Shown here: positions 12,008-47,823 of the stretch, piece after piece | How the letters are laid out: every line of letters starts with the position of its first letter | Position numbering within the stretch: the first letter of the stretch is position 1 | IMG/VR virus record: IMGVR_UViG_3300021411_000125 | Span: 1 to 53,722 of that record | DNA from: a virus | Taxonomy: Duplodnaviria > Caudoviricetes | Strand: one strand, 5' to 3' | DNA length: 53,722 bases | Position numbers and translations under genes: made by a program | The notes under the pieces: model-generated | Seen by the model: the letters and a program-made list of their open reading frames with translations, nothing else | The model's database searches: none | Told to the model about the DNA's origin: nothing

Positions 12008-12011
12008 TCAA

Positions 12012-12056: not shown

Positions 12057-12110
12057 GCCTTACCTATTCCCGCGAATTCCCGCGAAATCTGTGAAGGAGA
12101 CCCCGCGCCC

Positions 12111-12698
12111 ATGAGCCGCCCCACCGACCTTCGCTACAACCAGTCACTGCCTATGAAGCTGCCAGAGCCTGAGATTGGTAACCCGATCCGTCGAGGCGAT
12201 ACCGTGACCAACATTGATCCGCTGGGTAACGTGATCCCGGCCCCGGGTGAGGTGCTCGAGACTCACGGCGGTTACACCGTCGCGCCGGGCCTAGCGGCTC
12301 AGGCTGCCAAGGAAGCCGAAGGCCCGAAGCCAGGTATCAGCGACGTCATCGCCGAAGAGGCCGTGCCGGCGCGGTATCCAGACGGGTGCCCAGCGTTCCG
12401 ACCGCTGCATCGTCTTGGATTCAAGGAGAAGGCCGAGGCGTTCGAGCTCTACGACGTCGTGCAGAAGACCAGCAAGACGATCGGATCGCCGAAGAAGGGC
12501 GACGAACTCGACGCTAAGCGCGCCGCCAACTACTACCGGCTGCTTGCCAAGATCGACGAGTTCCTCTCTTTCGTCGCCATCGACAAAGAAGCCTATGAGA
12601 ACTGGCCCGGTCGGACCGATGAGACGCTGTTCGGTCAGGCGTGGAACGCGTACCAGGGGGACGCTCAGCCGGGGGAAGCCGCCAGCTTGTCCAACTGA
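12111..12698 (+). CDS. Tail assembly chaperone (short form)
   Basis: AAGGAG RBS; lies between major tail and tape measure; ends QPGEA..LSN, covering the slippery site. Confidence 0.85.
   Translation: MSRPTDLRYNQSLPMKLPEPEIGNPIRRGDTVTNIDPLGNVIPAPGEVLETHGGYTVAPGLAAQAAKEAEGPKPGISDVIAEEAVPARYPDGCPAFRPLHRLGFKEKAEAFELYDVVQKTSKTIGSPKKGDELDAKRAANYYRLLAKIDEFLSFVAIDKEAYENWPGRTDETLFGQAWNAYQGDAQPGEAASLSN
12671..12677 (+). promoter_or_regulatory. -1 ribosomal frameshift site G GGG GAA
   Basis: GGGGGAA in the correct phase of the chaperone ORF; the downstream ORF ending at 13093 is in the -1 frame. Confidence 0.85.
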
Positions 12699-13093
12699 TT
12701 GATGATCACGGGCCGGCGGTCCTGGCTGATCTGCTGCGCTACTACGGCGTGGATCTGCGGGACCTCTGGCGTGACGGCTGCGACCTCACGCCCCGGTACG
12801 TGTTCTGGTTGGTCGAGCACCTCCCGGCGGATTCCGCGACGTACGCGGCGATGAAGGGCGGACCCGAGTTCCGGCCCTGGACGATCGACACGTACTTGAT
12901 CGCGCAGATAGTCAACATGCTTGCCGTGGCGAATCACCAGCGCGCCGGCAAGAGAATTCGCAAGATGCCGATCCAGCCGCCGAAGCCCAAGGTTACGACC
13001 GCTCAGAAGAAGAGGCGCGGCCGGGTTGTGCGCGTCTCCGACATGAACGCGCGGCGAGCACTCGCACGGCAGATCAACGAGTCCAGTAAGTAA
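12677..13093 (+). CDS. Tail assembly chaperone, frameshifted C-terminal extension
   Basis: -1 frame ORF with ADLLRYYGVDLRDLW...LP.DSA...W....YL.A...N pattern. Confidence 0.85.
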   Translation, partial: SRQLVQLIDDHGPAVLADLLRYYGVDLRDLWRDGCDLTPRYVFWLVEHLPADSATYAAMKGGPEFRPWTIDTYLIAQIVNMLAVANHQRAGKRIRKMPIQPPKPKVTTAQKKRRGRVVRVSDMNARRALARQINESSK

Positions 13094-13112
13094 CTGACCG
13101 GAGGGGGTAGTC

Positions 13113-16100
13113 GTGAGCAGCCCCGGAGGTCAGGAAGTCGCACGGGTCAGCGTCAAGGTACTGCCCGATACCGCCGGCTTCGCGCAGAAGCTCAAGGGCG
13201 ACCTCCAGAAGATCAACGAGCAGGTCGTCGTCGAGGTCAACTTCGACATCGACGTGGCTGGGCTGATCACTGCGCTCGAGGCGTTGAAGCTGCCGAAGGT
13301 TACGGTCCCGGTCGATTTCGAGACCGTGCGCGATGCGAAGATCGAGGTCAGTGCCGACACTACGACGGCTAAGACTGAGGTCGACAAGACAGTAGCCGAG
13401 ATCAACGCCAAGAAGGCGTCAGTCAAGGTTGAGGCGGATACGGCGGCTTTTTCCAAGATCAAGCTCGAAGCGCTGATGAGCAACGTCACGCTGAAGGCCA
13501 AGATGGATCTTGATACCACTTCCTTCCTCGCACAGGTCGAAACGGCGAAGCTGGCAGCCGAGCGAATCTCGACGATCCGCGCCAAGTTCGACGTGGACCG
13601 GAGCGCACTCGACCGAGTCGGAAGCGTCATCACTTCGATCACCAACACGGTCCAGGGCGGCCTGACTTCGGCGATGTCCGGAGTCTCCAGCATCGGCAGC
13701 AGCATCGCGGACAACTGGTCGAAGATCTCGAGCACGGTCGGCAGTGTTGCCACTGGGGTCTTGACCATCGGTGCCTACGCGGCGGCCGGTGTCGGCATCG
13801 TGGACGTGCTCGCGGCGGCGTGGGGATTGGTCTCCACCGCTGTGCTCGCGGTGCCAGCGGCGGTCGCCCTAATTGGTGCCCCGATCGCCGCCGTAATGCT
13901 TGGCATGGACGGGATCAAGAAGGCCGCGAAAACCCTCGAGCCGGCCTTCAAGTCGCTGAAAGCGGCGGTCTCCGACACCTTCGCCAAGCAGCTGGTCCCC
14001 GCGTTCAACACCCTGAAGGCCGTGATGCCCACGGTGCAGACGGGAATGGTCGGAATCGCCTCGGCGCTGTCCACCATGGCGGTCAATCTGGCTAAGTTCC
14101 TCGCCTCGGCGCAGGGCACCTCGTTGCTGGCGACGACCTTCGACAACGTGAAGGCGGCGCTACTCGGGATCTCTCCGGGCATCAACGGGATTGTGGAAGG
14201 GTTCCTCCGGCTGACCGCGACCAAGAGCGCGTTCGATGCCCTTGTCCAGGTGATCAACACCGTGGGCACCGGGTTCAGCGACATGGTCAACGAGCTGTCC
14301 CGGACCGACACGCTGACCGCCGCGTTCAAGGGCCTTGGCGACGTGGTGTCTTCGGTCGCGCAGGGCTTCCTTGACCTGATGAAGAACGGCGTCACGGCCT
14401 TCTCGACCATGGCACCGGGGCTCGATTCCTTCGTGCAGTCGGTGACAAGCTTCTTCAACAGGTTCGACTGGAAGAAGATCGGCGCTGACATCGGTGGGGC
14501 CTTCAAGGGCATCGGTGACGCGATCAAGGGCGTGCCGCAGTCGACCATCGACGGCATCGCTAAGGGTTTTGCGTCCCTCAACCAGACCATGAACAGCGCC
14601 GGGGTTCAGGCGTTTATCCAGGACGTCATCAGCCTGATTCCGGCCGCGCTAAGCCTGGTCAATGATCTTGCTACCGCCCTCGGCTCTCTGGAACTCGCTG
14701 ACGCGGCGGTTCAGAACTTCCTCCAGGGCGTCAATGATTCGATCACCAACTGGTCGACCACCACCGATGCCGCGATTCAGGCTTGGGCGCAGAGCACCCA
14801 CGACACTATCGCCAACTGGTCGACCGGCCTCGACACCTCGATCAACACGGGCCTACAGGCGGTACACGACGCAATTATCAACTGGTCGACGACGACCGAC
14901 GCGACGATTCAAGCTTGGGTTCAGAGCACCCACGACGCGATAGCCACCTGGTCCGACGGTCTCGACGCCTCGATCAACGGTGGACTGCAGTCGATCAACG
15001 ACGCGATCACCAACTGGTCGACGACGACCGAAGCGACGATCCAGGCATGGGTTCAGTCGACGCATGACTCCATCGCCAACTGGTCGACCGGTCTCGACAC
15101 CTCGATCAATACAGGTCTCACCGCCGTGAACGCCGCCATTGTCAACTGGTCGACGACTACCGACGCGGTCATCCAGGCGTGGGCGCAGAGCACCCACGAC
15201 AAGATCGCCGCTTGGTCGCAGGGCCTCGATGCCGATATCCAAGGCGGTCTTCAGAGCTCGCACGATTCGATCGCCGCGTGGGCCACCGACACCGACAAGG
15301 TGATCCAAGACTGGGCACAGAGCACCCACGATAAGATCGCCGCGTGGGCTCAGGGTGTCCTGACCGATATCCAAAGTGGATTGTCGGGGCTGCCGGGTCA
15401 GATCGAGAGCCTCTTCGGCCAGACCGGACCGGCCGCCGCCAAGGGACTGAGTGGTACGTCTACGGCGGTTGGCACCGAGATGAAGGTCGTCAACGCGGCC
15501 TTTACGACGCCGCTTGACTCGCTGCCCGGCGACGTCGGTACCTCGATGACCGGGGTCGACACCGCGATCACCGCGCCGCTCGCTCCCGTCGCGGGGCAGG
15601 TCGGCTCGTCGATGGCTGGGATCTCGGGGGCTGTGACCAGCGGCCTGGCTCCGATTCCCGGGTTGTTCGTTACAGCGTTCACCGGACTCGGCGTGAGCGT
15701 GACCGCCGGGATGCTGGCCATTCAGCAGTCAGTTAACACTGGGTTTGTCGGGATTCAGGCGGCCTTCACCGCCGGCTTCGCGTTGCTGACGACCTCGGCC
15801 GCTCTCTCGTTTGTCAACCTAGCCGCGCTGGTCGTAACCCCCGGAATGCTAGCTATGCAGCTGGCTGTGACGACGGGGTTTGTCGGTATCCAGGCAGCCT
15901 TCACCGCCGGATTCGCGCTGCTGACTACTTCGGTGGCGCTGTCGTTCGTCAGCCTCGCCGCGCTCGTCGTGACGCCCGGAATGTTGGCCATGCAACTAGC
16001 GGTTAACACTGGGTTTGTCGGGATTCAGGCGGCCTTCACCGCCGGCTTCGCGTTACTGACCACCAACGCGGCCTTGGCCTTCGTCAACCTCGCCGCGCTG

Positions 16101-25348: not shown

Positions 25349-26139
25349 AGATCAAAGGACACCTTCAGCGTCTCGGCAGCTCCGTACCGCCTGCGGCGAC
25401 CATCGGTATTTCGATCATCGTCGCTACCATCATCTTGAGTACCACCGCCGCTCAGTCTGACTCGAAGGCCGACGTCGCCACGGCCAAAGCGGTCAGCATC
25501 TCTACTTCGCTGAGTCAGCTGTGCCACGCCGGTAACGACCTCGCCGCTCTGTTGCAGTCCGCGCGTACGGTCGATGGGTTGCCACTGTGCCCCACGGCCG
25601 AGGCTATCAAGATCAACCCAACGGCCGCGCCGGTGCAGCTGGTTAGTGACGACCACATCGTTTCGTTGATCCGCGCTGAGCTCGCTCGGACCCCCGTTAC
25701 GGGATCTACCGCTCCGACGTTATCGCAGGTCATCGACGCAGTGCGCGCCGTCATGAAAGAGAATCCCGTACTCTTCAAGGGTGAAAAGGGTGACCCGGGC
25801 GACGAGGCGTCAACCTCGGAAATCGCTCAGGTCGTCGCGTCGTACTTTCGGGCCAACGCGGAACAGTTCCGGGGTCCGGCGGGGAAGGACGGTAGGGATG
25901 GCAAGGACGGCGTAGCGGGTAAGGATGGAGTGAACGGCTCCAACGGATCGAATGGTTCGAACGGTACTTACGAACCGCAGCCAACCGTGACGCAGACCGT
26001 TACCCCCGATCCCGTACCCGACCAAGGCGATAGTGACACCACACCCCCAACTGTTACCCAAACCGAGACCCAGCAGAACACCGAGAACTCCACGCGACAA
26101 CGTCAGCGCGGCGGCCTTGGTGGCTTACTGGGGAACTGA
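25339..26139 (+). CDS. Membrane-anchored collagen-like protein
   Basis: ATG 25339; TM, Cys pair, G-X-Y repeats (GPAGKDGRDGKDG), Pro/Thr-rich tail. Confidence 0.75.
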   Translation: MRLKIKGHLQRLGSSVPPAATIGISIIVATIILSTTAAQSDSKADVATAKAVSISTSLSQLCHAGNDLAALLQSARTVDGLPLCPTAEAIKINPTAAPVQLVSDDHIVSLIRAELARTPVTGSTAPTLSQVIDAVRAVMKENPVLFKGEKGDPGDEASTSEIAQVVASYFRANAEQFRGPAGKDGRDGKDGVAGKDGVNGSNGSNGSNGTYEPQPTVTQTVTPDPVPDQGDSDTTPPTVTQTETQQNTENSTRQRQRGGLGGLLGN

Positions 26140-26167
26140 ATCCCCGCCCACTGAGAGGTTGAACCCA

Positions 26168-27022
26168 ATGTTCCGCACCTTCCTGGTCGCGGTGCTGTCG
26201 GTCCTGGCGCTGAGCAGCGTCGGGGTCGGCGTCGCCGTTGCCGCAACTCCTCTACCCGCTGTGGCGGACTGTGTTCAGGTCCTTAACAGCGACGCCAAGT
26301 GTGATACCAACACGTCCGCGAAGATCGACGCCAACAAGTTCGCCGCTACCACCGAGGCCGAGTGCAACGCCCGACACGGTGACTGGCACTGGGTGAACGG
26401 CAGCTGCATCCTGGACCGTCACAACGGTGGTAATCACTCTGACTGCATCGGCGACCAGGCGCCCGGTATCCCCGGTTGCCAGCGCGGCGGCCCGGTCTAC
26501 CACGGCCCGATCTACAGCGACTGCAACGACGCGCGCACCCACGGCTACCGTGACATTCGCCGGGGTGACTCCCGCTACAACGACAGCTGGGACCGCAACC
26601 GCGACGGCATCGCCTGTGACGACGGTGACCTGGTCATCGTCAGCGACGACGGCGACTGCGTGACCTACGCGACCGCGCGCGACTCCATCCGCAACTACGG
26701 GCTGGCCTACAACCGGTACCGCACCCAGTACCACGGCGACTGGAACCGGTTGAACACCCACGATCGCAGCGACCTGAGCCGGCTCTACTCGCTCAACCAC
26801 CGCTACGTCTCCGAGGGTTGGAACTCATCGCGGCTGTCGAACCTGCGGACCGTCTGCAAGGACACCAGCCCGACGGTGACCATCGTGAACGAGGCGCCGC
26901 CGGCGACCATCATCAACCAGGCGCCGGCCGCGACGTACACCGCGCCGGCTCCGCAGGTCTCCACGGTTCCTTCGGGCGCCGCTGAGACCGGTGGATTCGA
27001 TGAGGCGCACTCCGCCGGCTGA
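26168..27022 (+). CDS. Secreted excalibur Ca-binding domain protein, candidate sortase substrate
   Basis: ATG 26168; signal peptide; YSDCNDAR..G...IRRGDSRY...WDRNRDGIACD excalibur motif; C-terminal QVSTVPSGAAETGG. Confidence 0.82.
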   Translation: MFRTFLVAVLSVLALSSVGVGVAVAATPLPAVADCVQVLNSDAKCDTNTSAKIDANKFAATTEAECNARHGDWHWVNGSCILDRHNGGNHSDCIGDQAPGIPGCQRGGPVYHGPIYSDCNDARTHGYRDIRRGDSRYNDSWDRNRDGIACDDGDLVIVSDDGDCVTYATARDSIRNYGLAYNRYRTQYHGDWNRLNTHDRSDLSRLYSLNHRYVSEGWNSSRLSNLRTVCKDTSPTVTIVNEAPPATIINQAPAATYTAPAPQVSTVPSGAAETGGFDEAHSAG

Positions 27023-27699
27023 TGTTCCGCATCCCGCTGGTCATCCTGTCCCTCGGCCTCGCGCTCGCTGGCTGTGGCATCGCTCCTGAAGCGGCCATAT
27101 CAGCGACCGAGGGACAGGACCAGCCTTACCTCAGCCAAGCGCCACCCAGTGTTGCCGCACAGCCGGTAGCGATCCAGATCCCGTCCATCGGCATCGACTC
27201 GACCCGATCGACCTGGATCCCCCTCGGCATCCAGGGCCGCAACGGCATCAAGGTCACCCCTCCCGGCAAGTCCGGCGAGATCGAAGTGCCGCCGCTGGAC
27301 GACCCGCTCAAGCTCGGCTGGTACTGCCCCGACGGTCTACCCAACTGTGGCGCGCCGGTACCCGGGCAGGACGGCCCGCTTGTCGTCGTCGGCCACATCA
27401 ACGGCAACGGCAAGCCGGGAATCTTCGCCAAGCTGAAACAGCTCAAAGTAGGCGACAAAATCTTCATTCGTCGCAAGGACGACCGCGCCGCTGCTTACCA
27501 CGTTACGAAGGTCTCGGAACCACTGAAGAGTGACTTCCCAACCGAGCAGGTCTACGGCGATACCCCAACGCCTACCCTGAGGTTGATCACCTGCGGAGGT
27601 GGCGGCAACGCTCTCGAGCGTATCCCCGGCGCCGGCTCCAGTTACAAGAACCAGACGATCGTCTTCGCTGAACAAGACACCCTGAGCAAGACCCCCTGA
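27022..27699 (+). CDS. Class F sortase (lipoprotein signal)
   Basis: Lipobox LAGC; IPSIGI, GWY, PG..G..VVVGH (His), F..L..L..GD, LRLITCGG (Cys). Confidence 0.9.
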   Translation: MFRIPLVILSLGLALAGCGIAPEAAISATEGQDQPYLSQAPPSVAAQPVAIQIPSIGIDSTRSTWIPLGIQGRNGIKVTPPGKSGEIEVPPLDDPLKLGWYCPDGLPNCGAPVPGQDGPLVVVGHINGNGKPGIFAKLKQLKVGDKIFIRRKDDRAAAYHVTKVSEPLKSDFPTEQVYGDTPTPTLRLITCGGGGNALERIPGAGSSYKNQTIVFAEQDTLSKTP

Positions 27700-28163: not shown

Positions 28164-29231
28164 ATGCCTCGGCGTATGTTCCCGCGACGGAACGCCGAGG
28201 CATCGGCTCAGCCGGCGATGACTCTGCTACCGGCGCAAACACCGATCTTCGATGAGATGATCGAGGGTGTGAAGGTCACCGCTGAAGACGTTCCGTTCGG
28301 ACTCAACGCTGACCTGATGCCGGCTGAGGAGCAGCACAACCACGGCGAGCACGGTTTCTACGCCACGCTCACCGACGCGACTGGCCGCAGCATGATCAAG
28401 TCGCCGAACTACTCGAGCCGTGGCGGCAAGACGGTTCGACTCCTGATTGTGCACACCGCCGAGGGCGCCCGGACCGTTGAGTCACTCGGCTCGTGGTTCT
28501 CTTCTCCGTCGCGGCAGGTCTCTTCGCACGCCGGCATCGACGACAAGCGAATTGAGACCTACGTCCCGTACGACCAGGCCGCCTGGACCTGCCGCGCCGC
28601 CAACTCGATCTCAGACAACGTCGAGTTGTGCGGCTTCGCGGCCTGGACGCGCGAGCAGTGGCTGAACGACCACCCGCAGATGCTCGCACTGACCGCCCAG
28701 TGGCTCCGTGAGCGCGCGGTCGCTCGAGGCATCCCGTTGCGCAAGCTGACCCCCGAGCAGGTCGCGGCTGGGCAGTCAGGCGTCTGCGCGCACGTGGACT
28801 GGACGATCGGTATGAAGGACGGCACGCATACCGACTGCGGCACCGAATTCCCGTGGGACCACGTGATGAGCCTGGCCACCGCTTCCGCCCCCGCGCCCGT
28901 AGAGGAACCCTCGATGGCCGTCGAACGCTACGAGTTGCCAGCCGGCGACAACATGGAAGAGACGTTGATCGTGCCGGTGTTCAACGCCACCGACCGCGCC
29001 GAGCTCTGGATGGTCACTGGTTGGCAGGACGCGATCGTGCACGCGATGTACTTCGTCCGTGACCGGGGACCGGACCTTGATCCGAAGGTAGAGAACTGGG
29101 GCGGCACCGGTGAATGGACGTTGGTACGCGACGACCGACCCGGCTTCGACCTCGGCCAGGGCTGCACGTCGATCGCTGTCATGTACTCCTCTCCCCGCCC
29201 AATACATTGCTTGATCAGGTACCCGTCATGA
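28164..29231 (+). CDS. Endolysin, N-acetylmuramoyl-L-alanine amidase (Amidase_2-like)
   Basis: LIVHTAEG, VSSH, AW....N..S..VELCG, H.D and HTDCG..FPW zinc-amidase motifs; upstream of the holin. Confidence 0.9.
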   Translation: MPRRMFPRRNAEASAQPAMTLLPAQTPIFDEMIEGVKVTAEDVPFGLNADLMPAEEQHNHGEHGFYATLTDATGRSMIKSPNYSSRGGKTVRLLIVHTAEGARTVESLGSWFSSPSRQVSSHAGIDDKRIETYVPYDQAAWTCRAANSISDNVELCGFAAWTREQWLNDHPQMLALTAQWLRERAVARGIPLRKLTPEQVAAGQSGVCAHVDWTIGMKDGTHTDCGTEFPWDHVMSLATASAPAPVEEPSMAVERYELPAGDNMEETLIVPVFNATDRAELWMVTGWQDAIVHAMYFVRDRGPDLDPKVENWGGTGEWTLVRDDRPGFDLGQGCTSIAVMYSSPRPIHCLIRYPS

Positions 29232-30804: not shown

Positions 30805-31305
30805 ATGGCCAAGTACTTGACCAACAGCTCAGGCACCGTCACCGAAGTAGCCACACTCGTTACCTCGGCCGGTGCTGGTGACTCCGGCAAGATCCCCTCG
30901 TTGGACGCCGCCGGGCATCTGGACACTTCGTTCATGCCGACTGGTATCGGCGCCGACACCGCCGCGATCACCGCCTCCGAGGCGCTGGCTGCCGGTGACC
31001 TAGTCAGCATCTGGAACTCGACCGGCGCCAAGGTCCGCAAGGCCGATGCCAGCACCGCCGGAAAGGAAGCGCACGGCTTCGTCCTCTCCTCGGTGTCCAG
31101 CTCCGGTACCGCGACCGTCTACTTCGAAGGCTCCAACACGGGAGTCACTTCCCTGACCCCGGGCGTGCAGTACCTGTCGACCACGCCGGGCATCGCATCC
31201 GCCACCGCGCCGTCCGGTTCGGGCAACGTCGTGCAGCGGGTCGGGTTCGCCACCGCCGCAGCCGCGCTGAACTTCGACGCCGGCACCCCGATCGTTCTCG
31301 CCTGA
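30805..31305 (+). CDS. Conserved phage structural protein (cement/DUF2190-like fold suspected)
   Basis: SAGA.D.GKIP.LD..G.LD, ASEALAAGDLV, G..YLSTTPG, VVQRVG; AGGAG RBS. Confidence 0.65.
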   Translation: MAKYLTNSSGTVTEVATLVTSAGAGDSGKIPSLDAAGHLDTSFMPTGIGADTAAITASEALAAGDLVSIWNSTGAKVRKADASTAGKEAHGFVLSSVSSSGTATVYFEGSNTGVTSLTPGVQYLSTTPGIASATAPSGSGNVVQRVGFATAAAALNFDAGTPIVLA

Positions 31306-33017
31306 TGGCAACCCGCCGGCCCCTCGCCGTGGTCAGCGGGGCTGTTTCTGAGGTCCCGTCCGGCGACACCGTCGACCCCGCCGCGTTGCCCACGTTTGTT
31401 GCGTCGATCAGCAACGACGAAGGCTCGATCACCATAGACAGCCTCGGCAGCGGGGCGTTCAACGTCAAGGTCGCGGCGGTCATCTTCTCCAACCTCACCT
31501 CGTTGCTCGCGGGGAAGCAGGACATTGACGCTGATCTCACCGACATCGCTGGGTTGTCAGCGACCGACGGTGACTTCCTGCGCCGGGTCTCCGGGCACTG
31601 GGCCAACATCACCACCGCCGCGCTGAAGACGGCACTAGCTCTTGCCAAAGCGGACGTCGGGTTAGGCAACGTCGACAACACCTCGAACGCGACCGAGCGC
31701 GCGGCGGCAGCGACGCTGACTAACAAGACACTCACCTCTCCGGCCATCACGACTCCGACTGGCATCGTCAAGGGCGACGTGGGTCTCGGCAACGTCGACA
31801 ACACCAGCAACGTCACTGAGCGCGCGGCGTCGGCGACCTTGACTAACAAGACGCTGACCAGTCCGGTGATCAACACTCCGACGGGCATCGTGGCCAGTGA
31901 CGTCGGTGCTCAGCCGGTTGACTCGGACTTGACTGCTTTCGCGGCGATCAGCCCGAGCAACGACGACATCGTGCAGCGCAAAGCCGGAGCTTGGATTAAC
32001 CGCACCGTCGCTCAGCTGGCTACTGATCTCGCGCTCGCCGCGACGTATCAGCCGCTGGACGCCGACCTCACCGACCTCGCGGGGCTGACCTACACCGACG
32101 GAGACTTCGTCCGCAGGGTGTCGGGCCACTTCGCCACCATCACTACGGCGGCACTGAAGACCGCGCTGAGCCTGACCGCGACCGACGTCGGCCTGGGTAA
32201 CGTCAATAACACCTCGAACGTCACCGAGCGAGCCGCCGCCGCGACGTTGACCAACAAGACGCTCACTTCACCGGTGATCAGTACTCCGACCGGAATCGTC
32301 AAAGGTGACGTCGGCCTAGGCAACGTCGACAACACCTCGAATACGACGGAGCGGGCAGCAGCTGCCACGCTGACCAACAAGACGCTGACTAGTCCGGTGA
32401 TCAACACCCCGACCGGTATCACCGCCAGCGACGTCGGAGCTCAGCCGGTTGACTCGGATTTGACGGCCTTCGCCGCGCTGACTCCGACCAACGACGACGT
32501 CGTGCAGCGCAAGGCTGGCGCCTGGGTTAACCGCACCATCGCTCAGCTGCTGACCGACCTTGGTCTGGCGGCGCTGTATCAGCCGCTCGCTAGCAAGCTG
32601 ACCGACATCGCGGCGCTGACCGCCACGTCGGGCAACATCGTCACCGGTAACGGCACCACGTGGACCTCAGCGGCTCCGGCGGTACCGGCATGGTCTACGA
32701 AGGTCGAGACGATTGCCGACTCCTCTTCGCTGACCGGCGACTCACTGTCGGGCGCGATCCAGGTCGGGGTGTGCACCGCACTCACGCAGGCGGCCACGGT
32801 CAACCCACCGAGCAACGGCTACGTCGGCGCCGTGTACCGCTACATCATCACCGCGTCCGGTGGCGCTCGAGTGGTTACACCATCCGGGTTCGCCGCATCG
32901 ACTGACAACGGTAGCGGCGCGGCGGTCAGCGTCCCGTCCGGCAAGACCATCTCGATCTTCTCTCAGTACATCGGATCGAGTGGTTGGTTGTACGGCGGCT
33001 ACGAGTTGCTGGTCTGA
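31305..33017 (+). CDS. Tail fibre protein with nested repeats
   Basis: Four DVGLGNV(D/N)NTS / TLTNKTLTSP units within a 177-aa duplication. Confidence 0.82.
   Translation: MATRRPLAVVSGAVSEVPSGDTVDPAALPTFVASISNDEGSITIDSLGSGAFNVKVAAVIFSNLTSLLAGKQDIDADLTDIAGLSATDGDFLRRVSGHWANITTAALKTALALAKADVGLGNVDNTSNATERAAAATLTNKTLTSPAITTPTGIVKGDVGLGNVDNTSNVTERAASATLTNKTLTSPVINTPTGIVASDVGAQPVDSDLTAFAAISPSNDDIVQRKAGAWINRTVAQLATDLALAATYQPLDADLTDLAGLTYTDGDFVRRVSGHFATITTAALKTALSLTATDVGLGNVNNTSNVTERAAAATLTNKTLTSPVISTPTGIVKGDVGLGNVDNTSNTTERAAAATLTNKTLTSPVINTPTGITASDVGAQPVDSDLTAFAALTPTNDDVVQRKAGAWVNRTIAQLLTDLGLAALYQPLASKLTDIAALTATSGNIVTGNGTTWTSAAPAVPAWSTKVETIADSSSLTGDSLSGAIQVGVCTALTQAATVNPPSNGYVGAVYRYIITASGGARVVTPSGFAASTDNGSGAAVSVPSGKTISIFSQYIGSSGWLYGGYELLV
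31518..32620 (+). repeat. 531-bp (177-aa) coding tandem duplication
   Basis: Unit starts at 31518 and 32049, with a partial unit at 32580. Confidence 0.85.
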
Positions 33018-33020
33018 CCG

Positions 33021-34667
33021 ATGGGATTCGTAGCGGATATCCTCGGCTTCGGCAACGCGGCGGGCCCCCATTTCGATTTCGACTACTCAACCGCGACCGG
33101 CGCCGGCATCACCAACCTCACGCAGGCACAGCTCGCATCGAGCGCTGGCGTCGCCAGCATCATCTATGCCTCGGCGGATGCTCAGTCGGTTGTGCTGCGC
33201 TCTGATGTGGACGTCGACCCGATCGCCGCCAACGGCTACCCCCGCTCGGAGTGGCGGGAGAAGGGCACCAACGGCACCACTGATCGGGCGTTCACCGACA
33301 CCACCGGCGACCACATGGTCGAAGTGTTGGTCCTGCCGATGCATCTGCCGCCGATCAAGCCCGCGTTCGTGGTGCTGCAAGAGCATGACAGCGCGCAGGA
33401 TCTCCTCGAAATCGTGGTACAGGGCCGCTCCGACTACGCGACCTCCGGCAAGCTCGAAGTCGCGCTGAAGGTCGCGGTCGGCGGGTCCAGCAGCAGCGCC
33501 GGCATCCCCCGGTTCATCGCCGACTACGGCACACTCGCCGAGCTGATCACCAAACCGAAGTGGCTGAACGCCAAGATCCGCACCGGCTTGATCAACGGGG
33601 GAGCGGCTGGGTGGTCCGCGTCCTGCGCCGGCGTCACGATCAACAGCTGGGACGCCGGCATCCCGACCAGGGACGCGTCGGTCAGCAACACCTGCTACTA
33701 CAAGACCGGCATGTACCTCCAGACCAAGTGGACCGGTTCAGGCACCGGTGGTCTGGAGACCGACCGCAACGAGTACGGCGAAGCGGCCTGGCGCAGCATC
33801 AAGGTCACCCACAACGGCGAGTCGCTTCCGTTCATCCCGGTCACCGGCTCACGCGCCGAAGACACCATCAGCAACGTGAGGTGGGGCGCCAAGGCCGAGG
33901 GCGTCAACTCCGCGACGCCGACCGTTCTGACCCTCACTCCGGCACTTCCGGCCAGCCTCGTCAAGGACGACATGGTCTACGTTGTTGCCCGCACCCGGAG
34001 GACATCTCCGTCTACCGGAGTTGTGTCTAGTCCCGCTATCGAGTCCGTATCCCCGACGTGGAACCGGCTCTTGACTAGCAGCGGCGGGGAGTTCGCCAGT
34101 GGCGCTTTTGGCACCGACTTGACCAGCCACTCGCAGCGGATGCGGATCTGGTGTCGGCCGTGGTTCTCCGGAATGGCCGCACCCGCCCTGACCTTTACAT
34201 CGGGGGTCCCCGAAGACATCATGTCCGCGCAGTGCTTTGCCATCTACGGCGGCAAGCTCGGAGCTGTCGCTGAAGTCGTTGACCAGGTCCCGGCGAACTT
34301 CAACTACGGCGCGAGCAGTACCACGATCCTCGGCCCCACCGCCGCGCTACCGGCTGATGCTGAAGCTGGTTCGCTCGCTCTTGCGCTGCTGGCCAACGAG
34401 TTCAACGTGACCAGCGGCGCGGCGACCACGGTCTCCGGAGACGGGTTGACCTGGGTCGAGGGTGGTGAAGGCATCGGGACCACCATCGCTTTCCAGGCAT
34501 GGGCCAACGACCACGCCATCGTGCCGGGAACTGCCGGTCAGGCCATCACCGCCAAGCAGTCCGCGAACACGGCGCACACCACGGGCAAGTCGGCGTCCGT
34601 GTTGATGACGCTGAAGCGGGCCAAGAAGCGCCGTCACCACAACCGAGTCCCCACTTCGACCGGATGA
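33021..34667 (+). CDS. Polysaccharide lyase family 7 (alginate lyase-like) domain protein, putative depolymerase
   Basis: YPRSEWRE, VVLQEHD and YYKTGMYLQ match the PL7 RxELRE / QIH / YFKAGxYxQ motifs in order; beta-rich C-terminal half. Confidence 0.75.
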   Translation: MGFVADILGFGNAAGPHFDFDYSTATGAGITNLTQAQLASSAGVASIIYASADAQSVVLRSDVDVDPIAANGYPRSEWREKGTNGTTDRAFTDTTGDHMVEVLVLPMHLPPIKPAFVVLQEHDSAQDLLEIVVQGRSDYATSGKLEVALKVAVGGSSSSAGIPRFIADYGTLAELITKPKWLNAKIRTGLINGGAAGWSASCAGVTINSWDAGIPTRDASVSNTCYYKTGMYLQTKWTGSGTGGLETDRNEYGEAAWRSIKVTHNGESLPFIPVTGSRAEDTISNVRWGAKAEGVNSATPTVLTLTPALPASLVKDDMVYVVARTRRTSPSTGVVSSPAIESVSPTWNRLLTSSGGEFASGAFGTDLTSHSQRMRIWCRPWFSGMAAPALTFTSGVPEDIMSAQCFAIYGGKLGAVAEVVDQVPANFNYGASSTTILGPTAALPADAEAGSLALALLANEFNVTSGAATTVSGDGLTWVEGGEGIGTTIAFQAWANDHAIVPGTAGQAITAKQSANTAHTTGKSASVLMTLKRAKKRRHHNRVPTSTG

Positions 34668-38372: not shown

Positions 38373-38864
38373 ATGGGAGAGGTGCCGGATCGGTGGCCTC
38401 CGCTGCCCGGCACCCCGCTTCGTAAAGCGCTCGCCGAGGCGGTGTTTGAGCACGTCAAGAGTGGTGAGCTGACCTACCGGGAGATCGCTAACAAGCATAA
38501 GCTGAGCTCGACGTCGATCGTCACCAGGCTCTACCGCGAGGCGATCAAAGCGGGCTGGACAGAGGAGACCCGGGAAGAGGAACTCAGTCGTCTGGCGGCC
38601 TGGCACGAGCGGCTCGAAGAGGGTTTCGAGAGCGCGCTGTCCGCCGGTGACCACGCCGCGATCCCCGGGTTGGCGAAGGCCGCCGCCGAGATCTCCCGCG
38701 AGCTACGCAAGATCTACAACATCGACGTGACCCCGACGATCAAGATGCAGAACATCAATGCAGGTGGCTTGGACGCGCCGGCACCAGACCCGGCGGTAGG
38801 CCGCTGGGCGAAGCAGTACAAGGACTCCAACCTCTACCGGGAGAGAACCGATGGAAGCGATTGA
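38373..38864 (+). CDS. HTH protein resembling a terminase small subunit (second copy)
   Basis: GGGGAG RBS; LTYREIA HTH, REEELSRL, GD.AAI, R..RK...D.P pattern; upstream of the second TerL. Confidence 0.65.
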   Translation: MGEVPDRWPPLPGTPLRKALAEAVFEHVKSGELTYREIANKHKLSSTSIVTRLYREAIKAGWTEETREEELSRLAAWHERLEEGFESALSAGDHAAIPGLAKAAAEISRELRKIYNIDVTPTIKMQNINAGGLDAPAPDPAVGRWAKQYKDSNLYRERTDGSD

Positions 38865-39039
38865 CCCCGAGACGGTCCAGGACATGAAGATCGAGATCCA
38901 GGAGCTGCGCCACGCTGTTCGATCACTATGTAGCGTCGTGGAAGACCTCGCGGACAACCCGATCGCGCACATCTACAACAAGATGCCGTCTCCCGGTAAC
39001 CGCGCCCGGACCATCGTGACGTTGCTGGATGAGCAATGA
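38851..39039 (+). CDS. Small hypothetical protein
   Basis: GGAG RBS; overlaps both neighbours. Confidence 0.6.
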   Translation: MEAIDPETVQDMKIEIQELRHAVRSLCSVVEDLADNPIAHIYNKMPSPGNRARTIVTLLDEQ

Positions 39040-40586
39040 GTCTGCAGGCCGAGGTGCCGACTGACGAGCTGTGGATTACCGGCCCGCCGTGGTGGCCGGC
39101 GCACGAGTACGTCACGGCCCTCGACGGCAGAGACATCCGTCGCCAGGACAACCGCTACGCGATGTGCCGCAACAACCCACTGCTATTCGGACTGCTCTAC
39201 TTCCCGCATCTGATGCTGCAACGCGACCCCCGCGACCCGGCCGCGCCGGAACGGATCTACCTCTCGGATCTGCACTGCGACATGGCGAAATCGGCGGTGC
39301 GCTGGGCTCGTGACGACATCGGCATCGGCGAGATCCGAGACGCCTGGATCGCACCTCGCGGCGCGGCGAAGTCCACCTGGCTGCTGGTCATCCTGGTGAT
39401 CTGGGCGCTCGCTTTCGGACACCTGCGGTTCATCGTGCTGCTCGGTTCGACGCGCAAGGCGATCGCTGACACTCACTTCAAGAACCTGGTCGACGAGCTC
39501 ACCGGCAACGAACTGATCTCCTTCGACTTCCCGAACCTGACCAGCCCGGAGCGCAAGCCGCAGACCTCGGAGTACCGCGCCGGCAACGGAACCGTCGTCA
39601 TCGCGCGCGGCCTCGACGAATCGAACCTCGGTCTGAACATCAAGTCGATGCGACCCGATGGGCTGTTCATCGACGACCCCGAAGCCGACGAAGGCAACTT
39701 CAGCCTGACTAAGAAGGACAAGAGGATCGCCACGATTCGTCAGGCGGTGCTCGGCATGAATCTGCGCGCGGTGGTGCAGTGGGCCGGCACGACGACCGCC
39801 TACAACTGCCTGGCGCATGATCTGGTTCGCTCCGCCGTCGGCGAGGACACCTCGGAGTGGGTCGCCGAGACCGGGTTCCGCTGCCACTACTACCCGGTGA
39901 TCATCACCGATGGTGGCACCACGCAGCGCAGCCTCTGGCCGGTGATGTGGCCGATGAGCTACTTGCTCGAGCACCGAGGCGAGCGGGACTTCGAGCTGAA
40001 CTTGATGAACCGCCCGTTGACTAACAGCGGGACCATGTGGACGCAGGATAGCTTCGTCTACGGCATCCCCGAGTCGTGGGCGCGCGGCTTCTCCCGCTAC
40101 CTGCTACGCATCGACCCGGCCGTCACCTCGAAGGCGACCAGCGACTACACCGGGATGTGTGTCGCCGCCTACTCAAGCTCCGCTCGGTCGGTCGGCATCT
40201 TGATGGCCAACGCGGTGCGGGTCGACCCCGACGGGTTACGGACCAACGCTGAGCTTGCTCTTGCCCAGTTCCCGGAGATCCGCGAGATTCAGGTTGAGGG
40301 TAACCAGGGCATGGACTACGTGGCGCGGGTGCTGCACGGGCTGCCGAAGCACATCAAGGTGACGTTGCCCCGCTCCGCTGCCGGCAAGGACGCCTCGGTG
40401 GCCTCGAAGGCAACCCGGTTCGGGGTGGCGTTCAACTACTACCAGCGCGGCATTGTCCGCCATGCACATCAGTTTCGGATCGTCGAGGACCAGATGCTCG
40501 GCTTCCCGAACGCGGCGTTCGACGACGGCGCTGACGCGGTGGTGGGCGCGGTGAACGAGCTGTTGCATCATCTCCCGAAGCTGTAG
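39036..40586 (+). CDS. terL: Second terminase large subunit (Terminase_6/6C-type)
   Basis: Walker A APRGAAKST, Walker B RPDGLFIDDPE, GT coupling motif, SLWP; nuclease motifs IDPA, SDYTG, VEGNQG, FP...FDDGADA. Confidence 0.88.
   Translation: MSLQAEVPTDELWITGPPWWPAHEYVTALDGRDIRRQDNRYAMCRNNPLLFGLLYFPHLMLQRDPRDPAAPERIYLSDLHCDMAKSAVRWARDDIGIGEIRDAWIAPRGAAKSTWLLVILVIWALAFGHLRFIVLLGSTRKAIADTHFKNLVDELTGNELISFDFPNLTSPERKPQTSEYRAGNGTVVIARGLDESNLGLNIKSMRPDGLFIDDPEADEGNFSLTKKDKRIATIRQAVLGMNLRAVVQWAGTTTAYNCLAHDLVRSAVGEDTSEWVAETGFRCHYYPVIITDGGTTQRSLWPVMWPMSYLLEHRGERDFELNLMNRPLTNSGTMWTQDSFVYGIPESWARGFSRYLLRIDPAVTSKATSDYTGMCVAAYSSSARSVGILMANAVRVDPDGLRTNAELALAQFPEIREIQVEGNQGMDYVARVLHGLPKHIKVTLPRSAAGKDASVASKATRFGVAFNYYQRGIVRHAHQFRIVEDQMLGFPNAAFDDGADAVVGAVNELLHHLPKL
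40346..40396 (+). repeat. 51-bp inverted repeat, copy 1 (inside the second TerL)
   Basis: 49/51 identical to the reverse complement of 44549-44599; first 39 nt perfect. Confidence 0.92.
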
Positions 40587-40589
40587 AGC

Positions 40590-40610
40590 CGCCTCAAACT
40601 GTGGCATAAT
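40590..40610 (+). promoter_or_regulatory. Motif GCCTCA-AAC-TGTGGCA plus extended -10 (TG-G-CATAAT); likely leaderless promoter
   Basis: CATAAT 40605-40610, 6 nt before ATG 40617. Confidence 0.72.
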
Positions 40611-40616
40611 GGTGGG

Positions 40617-40832
40617 ATGGAACCCGACATGGACGGCATGATCAACGAGGAGTTGTGGAGCGACGAGCGGATTGGTCGGGAGCTGAATCCGGAGAAGCCG
40701 CTGAGCCCCCACTCGGTGCGCCGCGAGATGTCGCGGGCGAAGATCCCGATGCGCAGCGGCCGTAGCGCGCGGCTGGTCCGAGCACTGCTAGCACGGCGCG
40801 CGAACCGTGGTTCCGGTGCAGCTGATGAGTGA
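40617..40832 (+). CDS. Small basic HTH-like protein
   Basis: WSDERIGREL....SPHSVRREMSRAKIPMR; follows the promoter motif. Confidence 0.6.
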   Translation: MEPDMDGMINEELWSDERIGRELNPEKPLSPHSVRREMSRAKIPMRSGRSARLVRALLARRANRGSGAADE

Positions 40833-41568: not shown

Positions 41569-41604
41569 AGAAGCCCCGCTCCGGTGATCTGGAGCGGGGC
41601 TTCT
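41569..41604. terminator. Bidirectional terminator at the end of the + strand island
   Basis: AGAAGCCCCGCTCC / GGAGCGGGGCTTCT between converging genes. Confidence 0.85.
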
Positions 41605-41619
41605 GCCTTGGGCGGGTTT

Positions 41620-43961: not shown

Positions 43962-44152
43962 TTCGATACCTGCTTCCAGTGGATCACGCGGTTGATCGCT
44001 TCGAGGCGGTCGGTCAGCTCCCGGTACTCGAAGCTGTCGATGAAGACCAGGCCCAGTTGACGGTTGATCGCGCGCTGGCCGTTGCGCAGCTCAACTGGGT
44101 TCCACCGCGTGTAGAGGTTGTTCCAGAACGACATCGACTGGCGGCGCTTCAC
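43958..44152 (-). CDS. Hypothetical protein
   Basis: Coupled on both sides; high GC3. Confidence 0.6.
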   Translation of the reverse strand: MKRRQSMSFWNNLYTRWNPVELRNGQRAINRQLGLVFIDSFEYRELTDRLEAINRVIHWKQVSK

Positions 44153-44607
44153 GGGGTCAGCTCGATCGTCGGCTTAACGCCGGTGGCCCAGTCGATCAAG
44201 TACCTCTGAGTACCCTGGGACAGCCCCGCGAAGTCTCGGGAGGCGGCTTCCAGAATCCGGGACTTGTGGTCGGGCTTGGCCTCGGCGTCGCGGTTGGGCA
44301 CCGGCTTCGACTCCGGCACCCGGATCGGGAGTTCCAGTTCGTCGCGCAACTTCTTGTTCTCGGCCGTGAGCTGGGTGCGGTTACGTTCGAGCGCGTCACG
44401 CTGGTTGCGGATCTCCTCCGCTGTATCCAACAACCGAGAGATCCGCTCTTCGAAGTGAAGTCGCTCGTTGAGCCGGGCGTGAGCAGCCTTCTCGAGCTGC
44501 TCGTCAGCCCAGAGCCGGTACTGGTTCAGCGTGGTGGTGGTAGTGCGTGAGGCATCCTTTCCGGCAGCGGAGCGGGGCAACGTCACCTTGATGTGCTTCT
44601 TGATCAC
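44149..44607 (-). CDS. Coiled-coil protein whose N-terminus is shared with the second TerL
   Basis: AGGAG RBS, GTG 44607 overlapping the upstream stop; begins MIKKHIKVTLPRSAAGKDAS. Confidence 0.7.
   Translation of the reverse strand: MIKKHIKVTLPRSAAGKDASRTTTTTLNQYRLWADEQLEKAAHARLNERLHFEERISRLLDTAEEIRNQRDALERNRTQLTAENKKLRDELELPIRVPESKPVPNRDAEAKPDHKSRILEAASRDFAGLSQGTQRYLIDWATGVKPTIELTP
44549..44599 (-). repeat. 51-bp inverted repeat, copy 2
   Basis: Reverse complement matches 40346-40396 with 2 synonymous differences. Confidence 0.92.
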
Positions 44608-44801
44608 AGCTTCGCTCCTAGCTGACGCAGTGTTGATATCGAGTTTCGGATCGAGCGGTGGTCGCTTGGTGTCGAGGGGAAGAAGCACAACCCGCCACCG
44701 GGAGCCTTCGCTTTGTAGTGCCCGGATCTCTTACCCAGAGTCACTTCCCAACCCTGGGCTTCGAGATCACGAACGAGCCGCTCCGTGTCTCGGTTGGTCA
44801 C
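44604..44801 (-). CDS. HicA-like small protein
   Basis: L...LEAQGW.V....SGHYK...P.G......TPSD.RS..N....LR..G. Confidence 0.7.
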   Translation of the reverse strand: MTNRDTERLVRDLEAQGWEVTLGKRSGHYKAKAPGGGLCFFPSTPSDHRSIRNSISTLRQLGAKL

Positions 44802-46095: not shown

Positions 46096-47823
46096 TCAGC
46101 CCTTCTTCTTGCCGGACGCGGTGCAGTAGCCATCGCTGCCGTCGGGGGTCGCGGACTTGAAGGCGCAGTTCCCGGTCAGCAAGTCATCGACCAGGCCGAA
46201 CACCCCGGCCCCCTCGACCGTGGCGCAGAAGACTTCCTCGACTCGGTCGGTCTCGGTCACCGACTTAACGACCCAACCGCGACCGGGCTTCGATGTGTCC
46301 GCGAGGCGACCGACCACCCGCTCCGCGTGGTGCGGCAACAGGAAGAACCACCCGGGTAGGTCCCGCACGTTCAGGTCGATCTTATATAAGTTCGTCGGCT
46401 CGGTGCCGTAACCGACCCGCGACGAGGTGCTGATAATCCCGTATCGGATGCCCGTCACCGCCGCTACGTCGCGCACAAATTTGATGGCGGTTCGATCAGC
46501 CGAGGAGATCCCGCACTGGCCGGCTTTGGATACGGACCCGTCGGCAGCGAAGTACCCGGCCAACCAGCTGATCAGCTCCGAAGCCGGGAGTTCGATCGAC
46601 GGGCGGCTCTTCCAGGCGCGGTCGATGCCGTAGAGCCACTGCATTGTGTCGCCGTTGGCGGCTGGGTACTCGTGCGCGACGAGCTCGGGGAAGTAGTCGA
46701 GCATCCCGGCCTTGCGGCTCCGGCCGTACACCGAGAGCGTGCCGACCTTGCGAGTTCCGTGCGTCTTGGTCCCGTCTCCGTAGACGAACCCGCGCGCCAC
46801 TGCCTTCCGATCCTGCGCCACCGCGTCGGGGGCTACCCGGATGCCAGTGAGTCGGTGGCCCGGCCGTAGCTCCACGGTCAGCATCTCGGTACCGTTCTCC
46901 AGGATCCACCGGTGCTCAGCCGTGGCGTGCACGATCTTGGTGGCGTTGTGCCGGCGCAGCTCGACTTTGTGCAGCCGCTGGGCACCGAATGACCGGACCG
47001 GCACCGACTCGAAAGTGCCGAAGCCCTCGGCCGTCGGGACCAGCAGCTCGTGCTTGCCGCCGGCCAACTCCGAGATCGGGCGGACCCCCTGACGAGTCAC
47101 TACCTCGGTCTCCGCTGCCAGGCAGAAGAAGCAGTGCCCACCGGGGGTCTCGGGAATTCTCATCGGCTCGACACCGGCTTCGGACAGCTTCTGCACCACC
47201 TGCATCCGGGCGAGCGCCTTCACCGCAATCATCGGGTCGAACGGCTCGGACCAGATGTGCAGCGCCGACAGCTTCTTCGCCCGGCCGAGGAAGCAGATCC
47301 CGACTCGGTTCACCTGGTAGCCGGCGTTGAGGTAGCCGAGTCCGTAACAGTGCGCCTGCGTCCTGTACGTAGGACTGGGGCCTTCGCTGACGTACTTGGT
47401 GTACTGCGAGTCGCCGAGCACCTTCCAGTCCAGCACGGTACCGGTGGGGGCATGGAACACGTCGCAGGAGCCGCCGAGTCCCAGTCCTACGTCAACGCGG
47501 CGTTCGGTATGCCAGATCGGAGCGGTCGGCCAGGGAGGATTCGCGGCCTCGAAGCAGTCCGCGAGCCACGCGTGCACGGCGGTGCCGACGATTGACGGCC
47601 ACGGATCATGCAGGTCACGCGTCGGCGGTCGATCTGACATCTGGAAGGCAAGTTGCCGCGCGCACGGGGTGCCGACCTGTGACGGGCCGATCGAGCGCTG
47701 CAACGACCGTGGCGCGTTGCTGGCGAACAGCTTGATCTGATGGATGATCGGGGTCCGCAACCCGGTCTCGTCAGCGGACGCCGCGAGGTCTGACTTCGTC
47801 GGAACGAGCACACCGAGCGCCAT
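46096..47823 (-). CDS. Cas4/RecB-like PD-(D/E)XK exonuclease interrupted by an intein
   Basis: IGPS.VG.PCARQ, GTAVH, GSCD, VLDWK, QAHCYG; C-terminal C-FF-[intein]-C...C. Spliced product 256 aa. Confidence 0.88.
   Translation of the reverse strand: MALGVLVPTKSDLAASADETGLRTPIIHQIKLFASNAPRSLQRSIGPSQVGTPCARQLAFQMSDRPPTRDLHDPWPSIVGTAVHAWLADCFEAANPPWPTAPIWHTERRVDVGLGLGGSCDVFHAPTGTVLDWKVLGDSQYTKYVSEGPSPTYRTQAHCYGLGYLNAGYQVNRVGICFLGRAKKLSALHIWSEPFDPMIAVKALARMQVVQKLSEAGVEPMRIPETPGGHCFFCLAAETEVVTRQGVRPISELAGGKHELLVPTAEGFGTFESVPVRSFGAQRLHKVELRRHNATKIVHATAEHRWILENGTEMLTVELRPGHRLTGIRVAPDAVAQDRKAVARGFVYGDGTKTHGTRKVGTLSVYGRSRKAGMLDYFPELVAHEYPAANGDTMQWLYGIDRAWKSRPSIELPASELISWLAGYFAADGSVSKAGQCGISSADRTAIKFVRDVAAVTGIRYGIISTSSRVGYGTEPTNLYKIDLNVRDLPGWFFLLPHHAERVVGRLADTSKPGRGWVVKSVTETDRVEEVFCATVEGAGVFGLVDDLLTGNCAFKSATPDGSDGYCTASGKKKG
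46168..47124 (-). mobile_element. Intein (319 aa) with LAGLIDADG homing endonuclease
   Basis: Starts CLAAETEV; block B ATAEHRW; GFVYGDG and WLAGYFAADGS motifs; ends VFCATV...LLTGN/C. Confidence 0.92.

Follow-up and report, generated by a model that had tools for sequence, protein, structure and literature searches.

The window analysed here is the whole of IMG/VR record IMGVR_UViG_3300021411_000125, the linear genome of a soil phage (53,722 bp; G+C ~64%; CheckV completeness 93%). In addition to the small and large terminase subunits of its head module (TerS1 and TerL1), it carries a second terminase pair (TerS2 and TerL2) without an adjoining portal gene. Tailed phages are expected to carry one portal-matched terminase. 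The cassette formed by this extra pair and the small gene behind it, orf71, is intact, is under purifying selection, and has been vertically kept in this phage lineage. We put the probability at roughly 60% that positions 38373–40832 represent a functional accessory terminase cassette used in conflict with co-resident elements, the phage's own packaging being left to TerS1/TerL1. In such a cassette, TerS2 would recognize DNA, TerL2 would act as an ATP-driven translocase-nuclease, and orf71 would be a small helix-turn-helix (HTH) protein. The genes concerned, including an open reading frame (ORF) of 62 residues inside the cassette, are the following:

38373–38864, + strand: TerS2, a small-terminase-like partner of 163 amino acids with an HTH-like N-terminus, a putatively helical middle, and a conserved motif of the type ..LGLDAP.K..
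38851–39039, + strand: 62-residue ORF between TerS2 and TerL2, with high third-position GC
39036–40586, + strand: TerL2, an intact large terminase (ATPase and RNase H-like nuclease; PHROG 38) without an adjoining portal
40617–40832, + strand: orf71, a small HTH-like protein of 71 amino acids directly after TerL2, specific to portal-less cassettes
37–489, + strand: TerS1, the small terminase of the head module (PHROG 1496, E 8e-18)
489–2276, + strand: TerL1, the large terminase of the head module (PHROG 9, E 1.8e-59)
4159–5700, + strand: portal of the SPP1 type (PF05133, SPP1_portal, E 1.2e-46; PHROG 104, E 7.5e-107)

TerL2 consists of 516 amino acids and matches PHROG 38, "terminase large subunit", with an E-value of 1.2e-49 over residues 37–514. 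TerL1 belongs to PHROG 9, and the original prediction, made from the DNA letters alone, that 39036–40586 encodes a second large terminase of a different family is thus borne out. The nearest deposited relatives of TerL2 are the terminases of Streptomyces phages Dryad, Gibson, and Wentworth and of Microbacterium phages OscarSo and Wyvern, with 33–35% identity over 86–88% of TerL2, and the terminase of Mulchroom, a Streptomyces satellite, is 32% identical. Several homologues carry the Terminase_6C domain (PF17289); TerL2 of the window has no match in Pfam, and its sole NCBIfam match, TIGR01630 (E 4.4e-5), lies under the cutoff of that family. A sequence-profile search of the PDB with TerL2 found nothing at E ≤ 0.01, and the closest solved structure, T7 gp19 (PDB 4bij), was matched marginally (E 0.011) and in the nuclease domain only.

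The ATPase and nuclease motifs that had been quoted as intact (APRGAAKST, LFIDDPE, IDPA, SDYTG, VEGNQG, and FDDGADA) are all present in the translation of TerL2 and coincide with columns that are invariant in an alignment of 18 sequences (K112, S113, D213, D214, D360, D370, E421, D496, and D497). From motif position as known in terminases, not from a structure, we take K112 to be the Walker A lysine, D213, D214, and E216 to be the Walker B motif with the catalytic glutamate, G251/T252 to be motif III, and the conserved acidic residues D360, D370, E421, D496, D497, and D500 to belong to the nuclease active site. Conservation at these positions was counted in 44 sequences outside the portal-linked clade described below, 36 of which are of unknown genomic context:

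Walker A Lys: kept in 44/44
Walker B first Asp: kept in 44/44
Walker B second Asp: kept in 42/44 (Glu in two)
Catalytic Glu: kept in 41/44 (Asp in three)
Motif III Gly: kept in 40/44 (Ala in four)
Motif III Thr: kept in 44/44
Arg101, Arg108, and Arg206: kept in 44/44
Nuclease acidic residues D360, D370, E421, D496, D497, and D500: kept in 41–44/44

The pseudogenization of homologues that had been envisaged as a counter-indication is not seen, the ATPase, coupling, and nuclease residues being kept in 40–44 of the 44 sequences. Judged by these residues, TerL2 looks like a fully active enzyme. Because the coupling motif and the arginines are kept, the pattern implies a predicted selection on translocation as well as on cutting, and a role that would involve some capsid portal, either its own or a foreign one, is favored over that of a pure nuclease.

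The window has a rightward arm of genes, which extends from position 37 to ~41.2 kb, and a leftward one, which takes up the rest from 41.6 kb on. The TerS2/TerL2 pair is located on the + strand at the distal end of the rightward arm, where it comes after the genes for tail fibres and lysis and is convergent with the leftward arm; its earlier placement in the "early arm" was therefore mistaken. PHROG/Pfam scans of 30 ORFs revealed no gene for a portal or capsid from 22 kb to the end of the window, and tblastn with the Dryad-type, Mulchroom-type, and window portals gave no match near TerL2, in agreement with the earlier statement that neither gene follows the pair. Satellite hallmarks (capsid, portal, connector, and integration or helper-dependence genes) were not found near the cassette either. 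A scan of 34.6–42.3 kb returned no promoters and two terminator-like sites, against 3.9 expected. Among the RNA runs, none was listed as containing the stretch.

Routine packaging of the genome, together with the setting of its ends, would be carried out by TerS1/TerL1, since these genes lie beside the portal and four contigs begin at TerS1 with or without the cassette. In the window, the TerS1 gene lies 36 nt from the contig start. Homologues of TerL1 with 62–63% identity occupy the left ends of three further genomes, G001, G002, and G009, where the adjoining portal is 54–55% identical, and the contigs of all four genomes (the window being G000) start no more than ~60 nt from TerS1, which suggests defined physical genome ends there. 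G001 and G009 (TerL1 62%) share the head module of the window and carry a TerL2. G002 has the same type of head module (TerL1 63%) but lacks homologues of TerL2, TerS2, and orf71, and the cassette is therefore, on gene content, accessory. The reverse assignment, with TerL2 as the main terminase and TerL1 as the extra one, was dropped, given that it is TerL1 that adjoins TerS1 and the portal where the contig starts and that G002 has no TerL2.

Among the portal-less carriers, all six with a completeness of at least 84% (G000, G001, G006, G008, G009, and G010) have a terminase other than the TerL2 type. This count leaves out the contigs L085–L088 and the fragments G007 (53% complete) and G011 (40%); in the two fragments, no such terminase was seen. 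The other terminase is of the PHROG 9 type in G000, G001 (61 kb), G008 (62 kb), G009 (70 kb), and G010 (74 kb), with only 28% and 25% identity to TerL1 in G008 and G010, respectively. In G006 (68 kb), it is of the PHROG 2 type, extends across the contig ends, and adjoins a PHROG 64 portal, and L087 likewise has a PHROG 2 terminase and a PHROG 64 portal. Both G006 and G010 have terminal repeats and are 100% complete. In the five of these carriers whose portal was sought (G000, G001, G006, G008, and G009), the other terminase adjoins the carrier's own portal, which in G008 is of PHROG 12. Taken together, the carriers comprise at least five backbones and three portal families (PHROG 104, 12, and 64). 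By comparison, a PHROG 9 or PHROG 2 terminase was found in none of the five control genomes of the portal-adjacent, Dryad-type clade (85–100% complete; three of the five records are classed as proviruses), whereas the window has an unrelated terminase for its head module.

The TerL2 of G001 and G009 belongs to another subclade (32–34% identity to TerL2 of the window) and lies at the end of the other arm, which suggests either separate acquisitions or relocation. TerL2 is the last or nearly the last gene before the convergent arm junction in G000, G001, G009, G010, and G011, and in G006 it has the portal on one side and the MuF and capsid genes on the other. Judged from these gene comparisons, the distribution shows a cassette that is mobile among phages already holding a terminase. 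Because the same extra pair recurs in several unrelated phages, the portal-less cassette probably has some so far undescribed job. The earlier idea of a repurposed or additional function thus stands in general terms, the portal-less form being found in at least five backbones; no computation separates the specific roles that were proposed with it, namely the cutting or mispackaging of competitor DNA, interference, and an alternative mode of packaging.

Portal adjacency was counted for the best 80 of 376 TerL2 relatives in IMG/VR (33–41% identity). In 77 of these 80 loci, a portal of the Dryad/Mulchroom type begins ~100–700 nt after the TerL2-type gene, and the portal-less loci are L007, L038, and L078. 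These three, four metagenome loci (L085–L088), G001, which was found via the TerL1 relatives, and L135, L148, and L151, which were found via a further scan, make up the 11 portal-less rows. In a FastTree phylogeny of 137 rows, a 93-row clade, 15 rows of which are of unknown context, includes all 78 portal-adjacent rows (77 from IMG/VR and Dryad), and the portal-less rows lie outside it. In an 82-row phylogeny, for which IQ-TREE was run in quick-search mode under LG+G4, the portal-adjacent rows (36) unite in a single clade with a Shimodaira–Hasegawa-like approximate likelihood ratio test (SH-aLRT) value of 100, and 11/11 portal-less rows fall outside. Placement by hidden Markov model (HMM) and phylogeny, one of the checks suggested at the outset, thus assigns TerL1 to PHROG 9 and TerL2 to PHROG 38 and sets the portal-less rows apart from the portal-linked clade. 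When viral contigs were scanned with TerL2 or TerS2 as single proteins, no relatives were returned, a scan of species genomes with an alignment of close relatives (A2) gave no match, and the 50,697 deposited phage records contain no relative of three portal-less copies that is more than 41% identical.

Retention of the cassette is evident from the metagenome contig L085, which is colinear with 28.9–48.7 kb of the window at 75–87% nucleotide identity and carries the pair at the same place. The ratio of nonsynonymous to synonymous substitution rates (dN/dS) against L085 is 0.23–0.24 for TerL2 (0.28 for the N-terminus, 0.28 for the ATPase, and 0.18 for the nuclease), 0.227 for TerS2, and 0.166 for orf71, and the values for the endolysin and for the fibre/lysis-region genes are 0.215 and 0.14–0.28, respectively. 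A further contig, L086, whose TerL2 is 45% identical at the amino acid level, has the same gene order as the window, i.e., orf82, TerS2, TerL2, orf71, and then a sigma factor and WhiB, both on the − strand. Because this order is kept at 45% identity, the cassette is, as far as synteny can tell, vertically inherited through deep divergence. Relatives therefore keep the pair with low dN/dS, as had been proposed for checking, and the suggestion of a recent recombination relic is contradicted both by L085 (~80% nucleotide identity, dN/dS 0.23) and by the syntenic L086.

The earlier concern that the record might be a chimeric assembly is answered by a 24,351-nt contig, produced by another assembler from the probable source sample, which extends from the tail genes to 40375 with zero differences and so joins the cassette to the tail and lysis genes. 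The depth across the cassette region is even (12.5–15.9). A further run, X3, contains only small fragments. An inverted repeat of 51 nt has one arm within TerL2:

40346–40396, no strand assigned: repeat arm 1, 51 nt, inside TerL2 (residues 437–453), complementary to arm 2 at 49/51 positions (96%)
44549–44599, no strand assigned: repeat arm 2, near the start of the minus-strand ORF 44149–44688

Read in frame, the two arms give an identical 17-residue peptide, which is native to TerL2, and the repeat is absent in L085. The short-k contigs of the other assembler break exactly at the arms, and the depth of the repeat node is doubled. For the 4.2-kb segment that the arms enclose (40.4–44.5 kb), only the original assembly and the synteny with L085 determine the orientation; as assembled, the segment matches L085 and gives an intact TerL2.

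Some variation was observed just beyond the cassette. Between its homologues of orf71 and orf136, L085 has ~2.1 kb of extra genes (11744–13874), as against a mere 20 nt in the window; genes are gained and lost at the junction that follows the cassette. A minor contig of 720 nt (depth 5.6 versus 12.5), found in both runs of the probable source sample, shares only the 39 intergenic nucleotides 41569–41607, at the meeting of the convergent arms, and has other sequence on either side of them. It may represent a strain variant or a shared terminator-like element. A one-base insertion variant occurs at 41586.

The gene for TerS2 ends 172 nt upstream of TerL2. We would say that 38373–38864 is a putative TerS by linkage and architecture, and not by sequence similarity to named TerS proteins. 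Its HTH-like N-terminus finds its best solved-structure matches in sigma region 4 and GerE (E 0.05–0.3, non-significant), TerS2 weakly matches HTH_23-bearing Atlas clusters, and the helical middle was judged by eye. A profile search with this family of ~160-residue proteins yielded 600 members at E ≤ 1e-3 among 1.84 billion representatives. In the alignment of 59 full-length members (A4) from which a local HMM was built, 56 match PHROG 645 and two match the TerS family PHROG 1482; TerS2 itself matches PHROG 645 at an E-value of 5e-4 only. The label of PHROG 645, "Rnase E", looks like a misannotation. With the local HMM, a same-strand ORF of the family was detected upstream of the TerL2-type gene in 64 of the 77 portal-adjacent loci and in 57 of the 63 that have at least 1500 nt of upstream sequence (41 within 700 nt; median gap, 422 nt). 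Indeed, Dryad gene 1 is a family member (E 1.5e-11). Such an ORF is also present upstream of the portal-less TerL2 in L085, L086, L087, G001, G006, G007, G008, and G011, with a weak match in G009 and G010, and TerS2 is the sole strong member of its family in the window. In pairwise comparisons by BLASTP, TerS2 matched none of Mulchroom TerS, Dryad gp7, and TerS1, and tblastn of TerS2 against deposited phages gave no match; as a weak lead, the TerS2 homologue of G006 matched in tblastn an HTH gene that lies 1.3 kb upstream of the Rhodococcus phage Tonitrus terminase. What had been described as an upstream HTH TerS-like gene thus stands with regard to the ORF and the linkage, but not with regard to a named TerS family.

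Orf71 distinguishes the portal-less cassettes. Its homologues (56–71 amino acids) directly follow TerL2 in L085, L086, L088, G007 (L038/L136), and G008 (L078), and none was found in the portal-adjacent loci. The protein has the appearance, by eye, of an excisionase/MerR-like HTH and no match in Pfam, and a homologue search yielded two close relatives. The 62-residue ORF between TerS2 and TerL2 is weakly conserved in L085 (46% over 46 amino acids, dN/dS 0.36) and has no family match in the profile libraries. In G006 (58069–58566, − strand) and L087 (3018–3476, + strand), the small HTH protein is replaced after the accessory terminase by another protein in which a JAMM/MPN-like H-x-H ... S-x-x-D motif can be discerned by eye.

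Several known systems resemble parts of this arrangement. The terminases of Dryad, Gibson, Wentworth, OscarSo, and Wyvern are like TerL2 in family (PHROG 38 type), in motifs, and in having a TerS2-family gene upstream, but the Dryad terminase is directly followed by its portal (genes 9 and 10). Mulchroom resembles the cassette as a mobile element with its own TerS and a TerL of this family. However, its terminase too is directly followed by a portal, and the satellite also encodes a portal, scaffold, capsid, connectors, and an integrase, whereas the cassette has none of these and lies inside a complete phage with head genes. Cluster C1 mycobacteriophages, which are large myoviruses, offer a further comparison. 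In PMC5050341, a "terminase-like" Pham3880 of these phages is listed apart from the TerL types, as an intein host with no POG match; it is a terminase-like ATPase separate from the TerL types in actinophages, and its likeness to TerL2 is one of description only. [quoted passage not shown] According to the same paper, Staphylococcus aureus pathogenicity islands (SaPIs) and PICIs carry only TerS or a TerS-binding protein (Rpp), which redirects packaging. The predicted cassette would resemble these elements (PMC10690885) in providing a packaging-specificity factor without a capsid of its own, for use in mobile-element conflict, but SaPIs and PICIs borrow the TerL of the helper, whereas the window carries a complete TerL and its carrier is a phage, not a satellite.

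On our reading, the accessory cassette would have originated as a packaging module of Dryad/OscarSo/Mulchroom-type actinophages and satellites whose link to the portal was lost. TerS2, perhaps with orf71, would give DNA recognition, TerL2 would cut and translocate, and the target would be DNA or a capsid outside the phage's own routine packaging. The likeliest use would be conflict with co-resident phages, prophages, or satellites that employ this terminase family, with either the concatemers of rivals being cut or their proheads being loaded with DNA. Our leading guess is that the cassette interferes with co-resident packaging systems or pirates them, because ordinary members of the family belong to temperate phages, to lytic Streptomyces and Microbacterium phages, and to a satellite. 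In a bolder and decidedly tentative form, which we consider doubtful, the portal-less cassettes would be a widespread, horizontally moving actinophage weapon that mimics the Dryad/OscarSo/Mulchroom-type terminase for capsid piracy or for pac-site cutting of rivals. If this were true, the cassette would let its carrier dock on foreign proheads and fill them with its own DNA; it would be the phage-encoded counterpart of satellite packaging redirection and would constitute a new class of inter-virus conflict system.

A number of points weigh against an accessory cassette that serves in conflict. The specific role is a matter of inference. The ring-ATPase features kept in TerL2 argue for a portal-like docking partner, and the three portal families of the carriers fit neither docking on the own portal nor capsid-free action cleanly. 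TerS2 has no significant match to named TerS families, and hhalign comparisons of its family with TerS1 and with Mulchroom TerS detected no similarity. PADLOC identified no defence families among the ten proteins of 35.4–41.2 kb. The "no portal" call covers tblastn with three portal queries and PHROG scans of selected ORFs only. In the 82-row tree, 32 rows outside the portal clade are proteins of unknown genomic context, and rooting on three distant PHROG 38-type sequences turns the portal-less rows into a basal grade, not a derived clade; since the outgroup branch is long and the context of the outgroup unseen, we do not trust this root, and the direction of change, i.e., that TerL2 "lost its portal", is left unsupported. 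The contig starts near TerS1 are possibly an assembly coincidence.

Other explanations account for parts of the same evidence. In a second packaging mode, TerS2/TerL2 would dock on the resident portal and package from another pac site beside TerS1/TerL1, for example by headful packaging of phage, host, or plasmid DNA (transduction). The translocation-related residues, all of which are kept, the TerS-like partner, which is always nearby, and the G006 cassette, which in the head module separates the portal from the MuF/capsid genes, are consistent with this mode. Yet the portals of the carriers belong to three unrelated families and the cognate terminases to PHROG 2 and PHROG 9, members of the latter being only 25–28% identical to TerL1, so that docking would have to be promiscuous; in addition, contigs start at TerS1 with or without the cassette, and G002 manages without it. 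On balance, we regard a second packaging mode as unlikely. A capsid-independent enzyme, in which TerS2 guides TerL2 as an ATP-dependent endonuclease/translocase in replication, recombination, or host-DNA degradation, appears improbable to us. The gene does end the non-structural arm in G001, G010, and G011, follows an exonuclease and a helicase on the same strand in G011, and adjoins a sigma factor and WhiB without a portal in the window, but its position is inconsistent, being after the lysis genes in the window and among the head genes in G006. Moreover, the ATPase activity of TerL depends on ring assembly at the portal, and we know of no similar capsid-independent role of a TerL; both considerations count against such an enzyme.

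The pair might instead be a selfish cassette, similar to a homing endonuclease, that cleaves genomes lacking the cassette and is spread by recombinational repair, with no benefit to the phage. Its patchy occurrence among relatives (absent from G002, and of another subclade on the other arm in G001 and G009) and its tendency to lie at convergent arm junctions would suit such an element, and a LAGLIDADG intein at another place in the genome attests to the presence of selfish elements. Nevertheless, long vertical retention and purifying selection on both the ATPase and the nuclease speak against it, neither flanking repeats nor a conserved target was seen, and homing needs no translocating ATPase; we consider a selfish cassette very improbable. 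Hardly credible is a non-functional recombination relic or an assembly chimera of two phages. Phage genomes are mosaic, and the 51-nt inverted repeat in TerL2, at which the short-k contigs break, shows recent recombination. Against this stand the dN/dS of 0.23, the frames that are intact in two close relatives and in a third one at 45% identity, and the catalytic residues, which are all kept, as well as the same synteny in the independent contig L085, the single 24-kb contig that ties the cassette to the tail genes at even depth, and the complete assemblies with terminal repeats of two carriers (G006 and G010). A role of TerL2 as a decoy for terminase-sensing defence proteins was also considered and dropped, since a decoy would need no conserved catalytic residues.

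As proteins, TerL2 and TerS2 are ordinary members of their families, and the novelty is in their arrangement. Full-text literature searches, with supplementary files outside their scope, found no description of a conserved portal-less terminase in siphophage-like genomes. An accessory terminase cassette of this kind points to a terminase function beyond the packaging of the own genome, possibly in conflicts of co-resident viruses and satellites, and it provides a concrete gene set with a simple genomic signature. TerL serves as a single-copy marker in phage classification and virome surveys, and where actinophages are counted or classified by TerL, the wrong gene can be picked.

The remainder of the window has the layout of a phage with full head, tail, and lysis gene sets, the head module being at its left end. 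After the portal, the rightward arm contains tail and fibre genes, a sortase, an endolysin (28164–29231), and fibre- or lyase-like proteins up to 34.7 kb; the leftward arm, which begins at 41620, contains the sigma factor and WhiB, an intein-bearing exonuclease, and a helicase. The best deposited matches of TerL1 are from Microbacterium, Bifidobacterium, Mycobacterium, and Streptomyces phages, with identities of at most 46%. Because of WhiB and the taxonomy of these matches, the host is presumably actinobacterial. No DNA nearly identical to the window was found among deposited phages.

Three further features of these arms were observed. The sortase (27022–27699; PF04203, E 7e-16) adjoins an Excalibur-domain protein (26033–27022) just upstream of the endolysin; because homologues with 32–40% identity are kept in G001, G002, and G009, it is, by this comparison, a stable feature of this phage group. 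An alginate-lyase-like protein (33021–34667; PF08787, E 2e-13) and a fibre-like protein (31305–33017) lie after the lysis gene and apart from the tail genes, and they may be depolymerases or receptor-binding proteins. The exonuclease of the leftward arm (46096–47823, − strand) is Cas4/RecB-like (PHROG 1674, E 3e-64, residues 19–239) and contains an intein-like insert (LAGLIDADG_3, E 2e-6, and a weak Hint_2 match), and L085 is ~970 nt shorter at this place.

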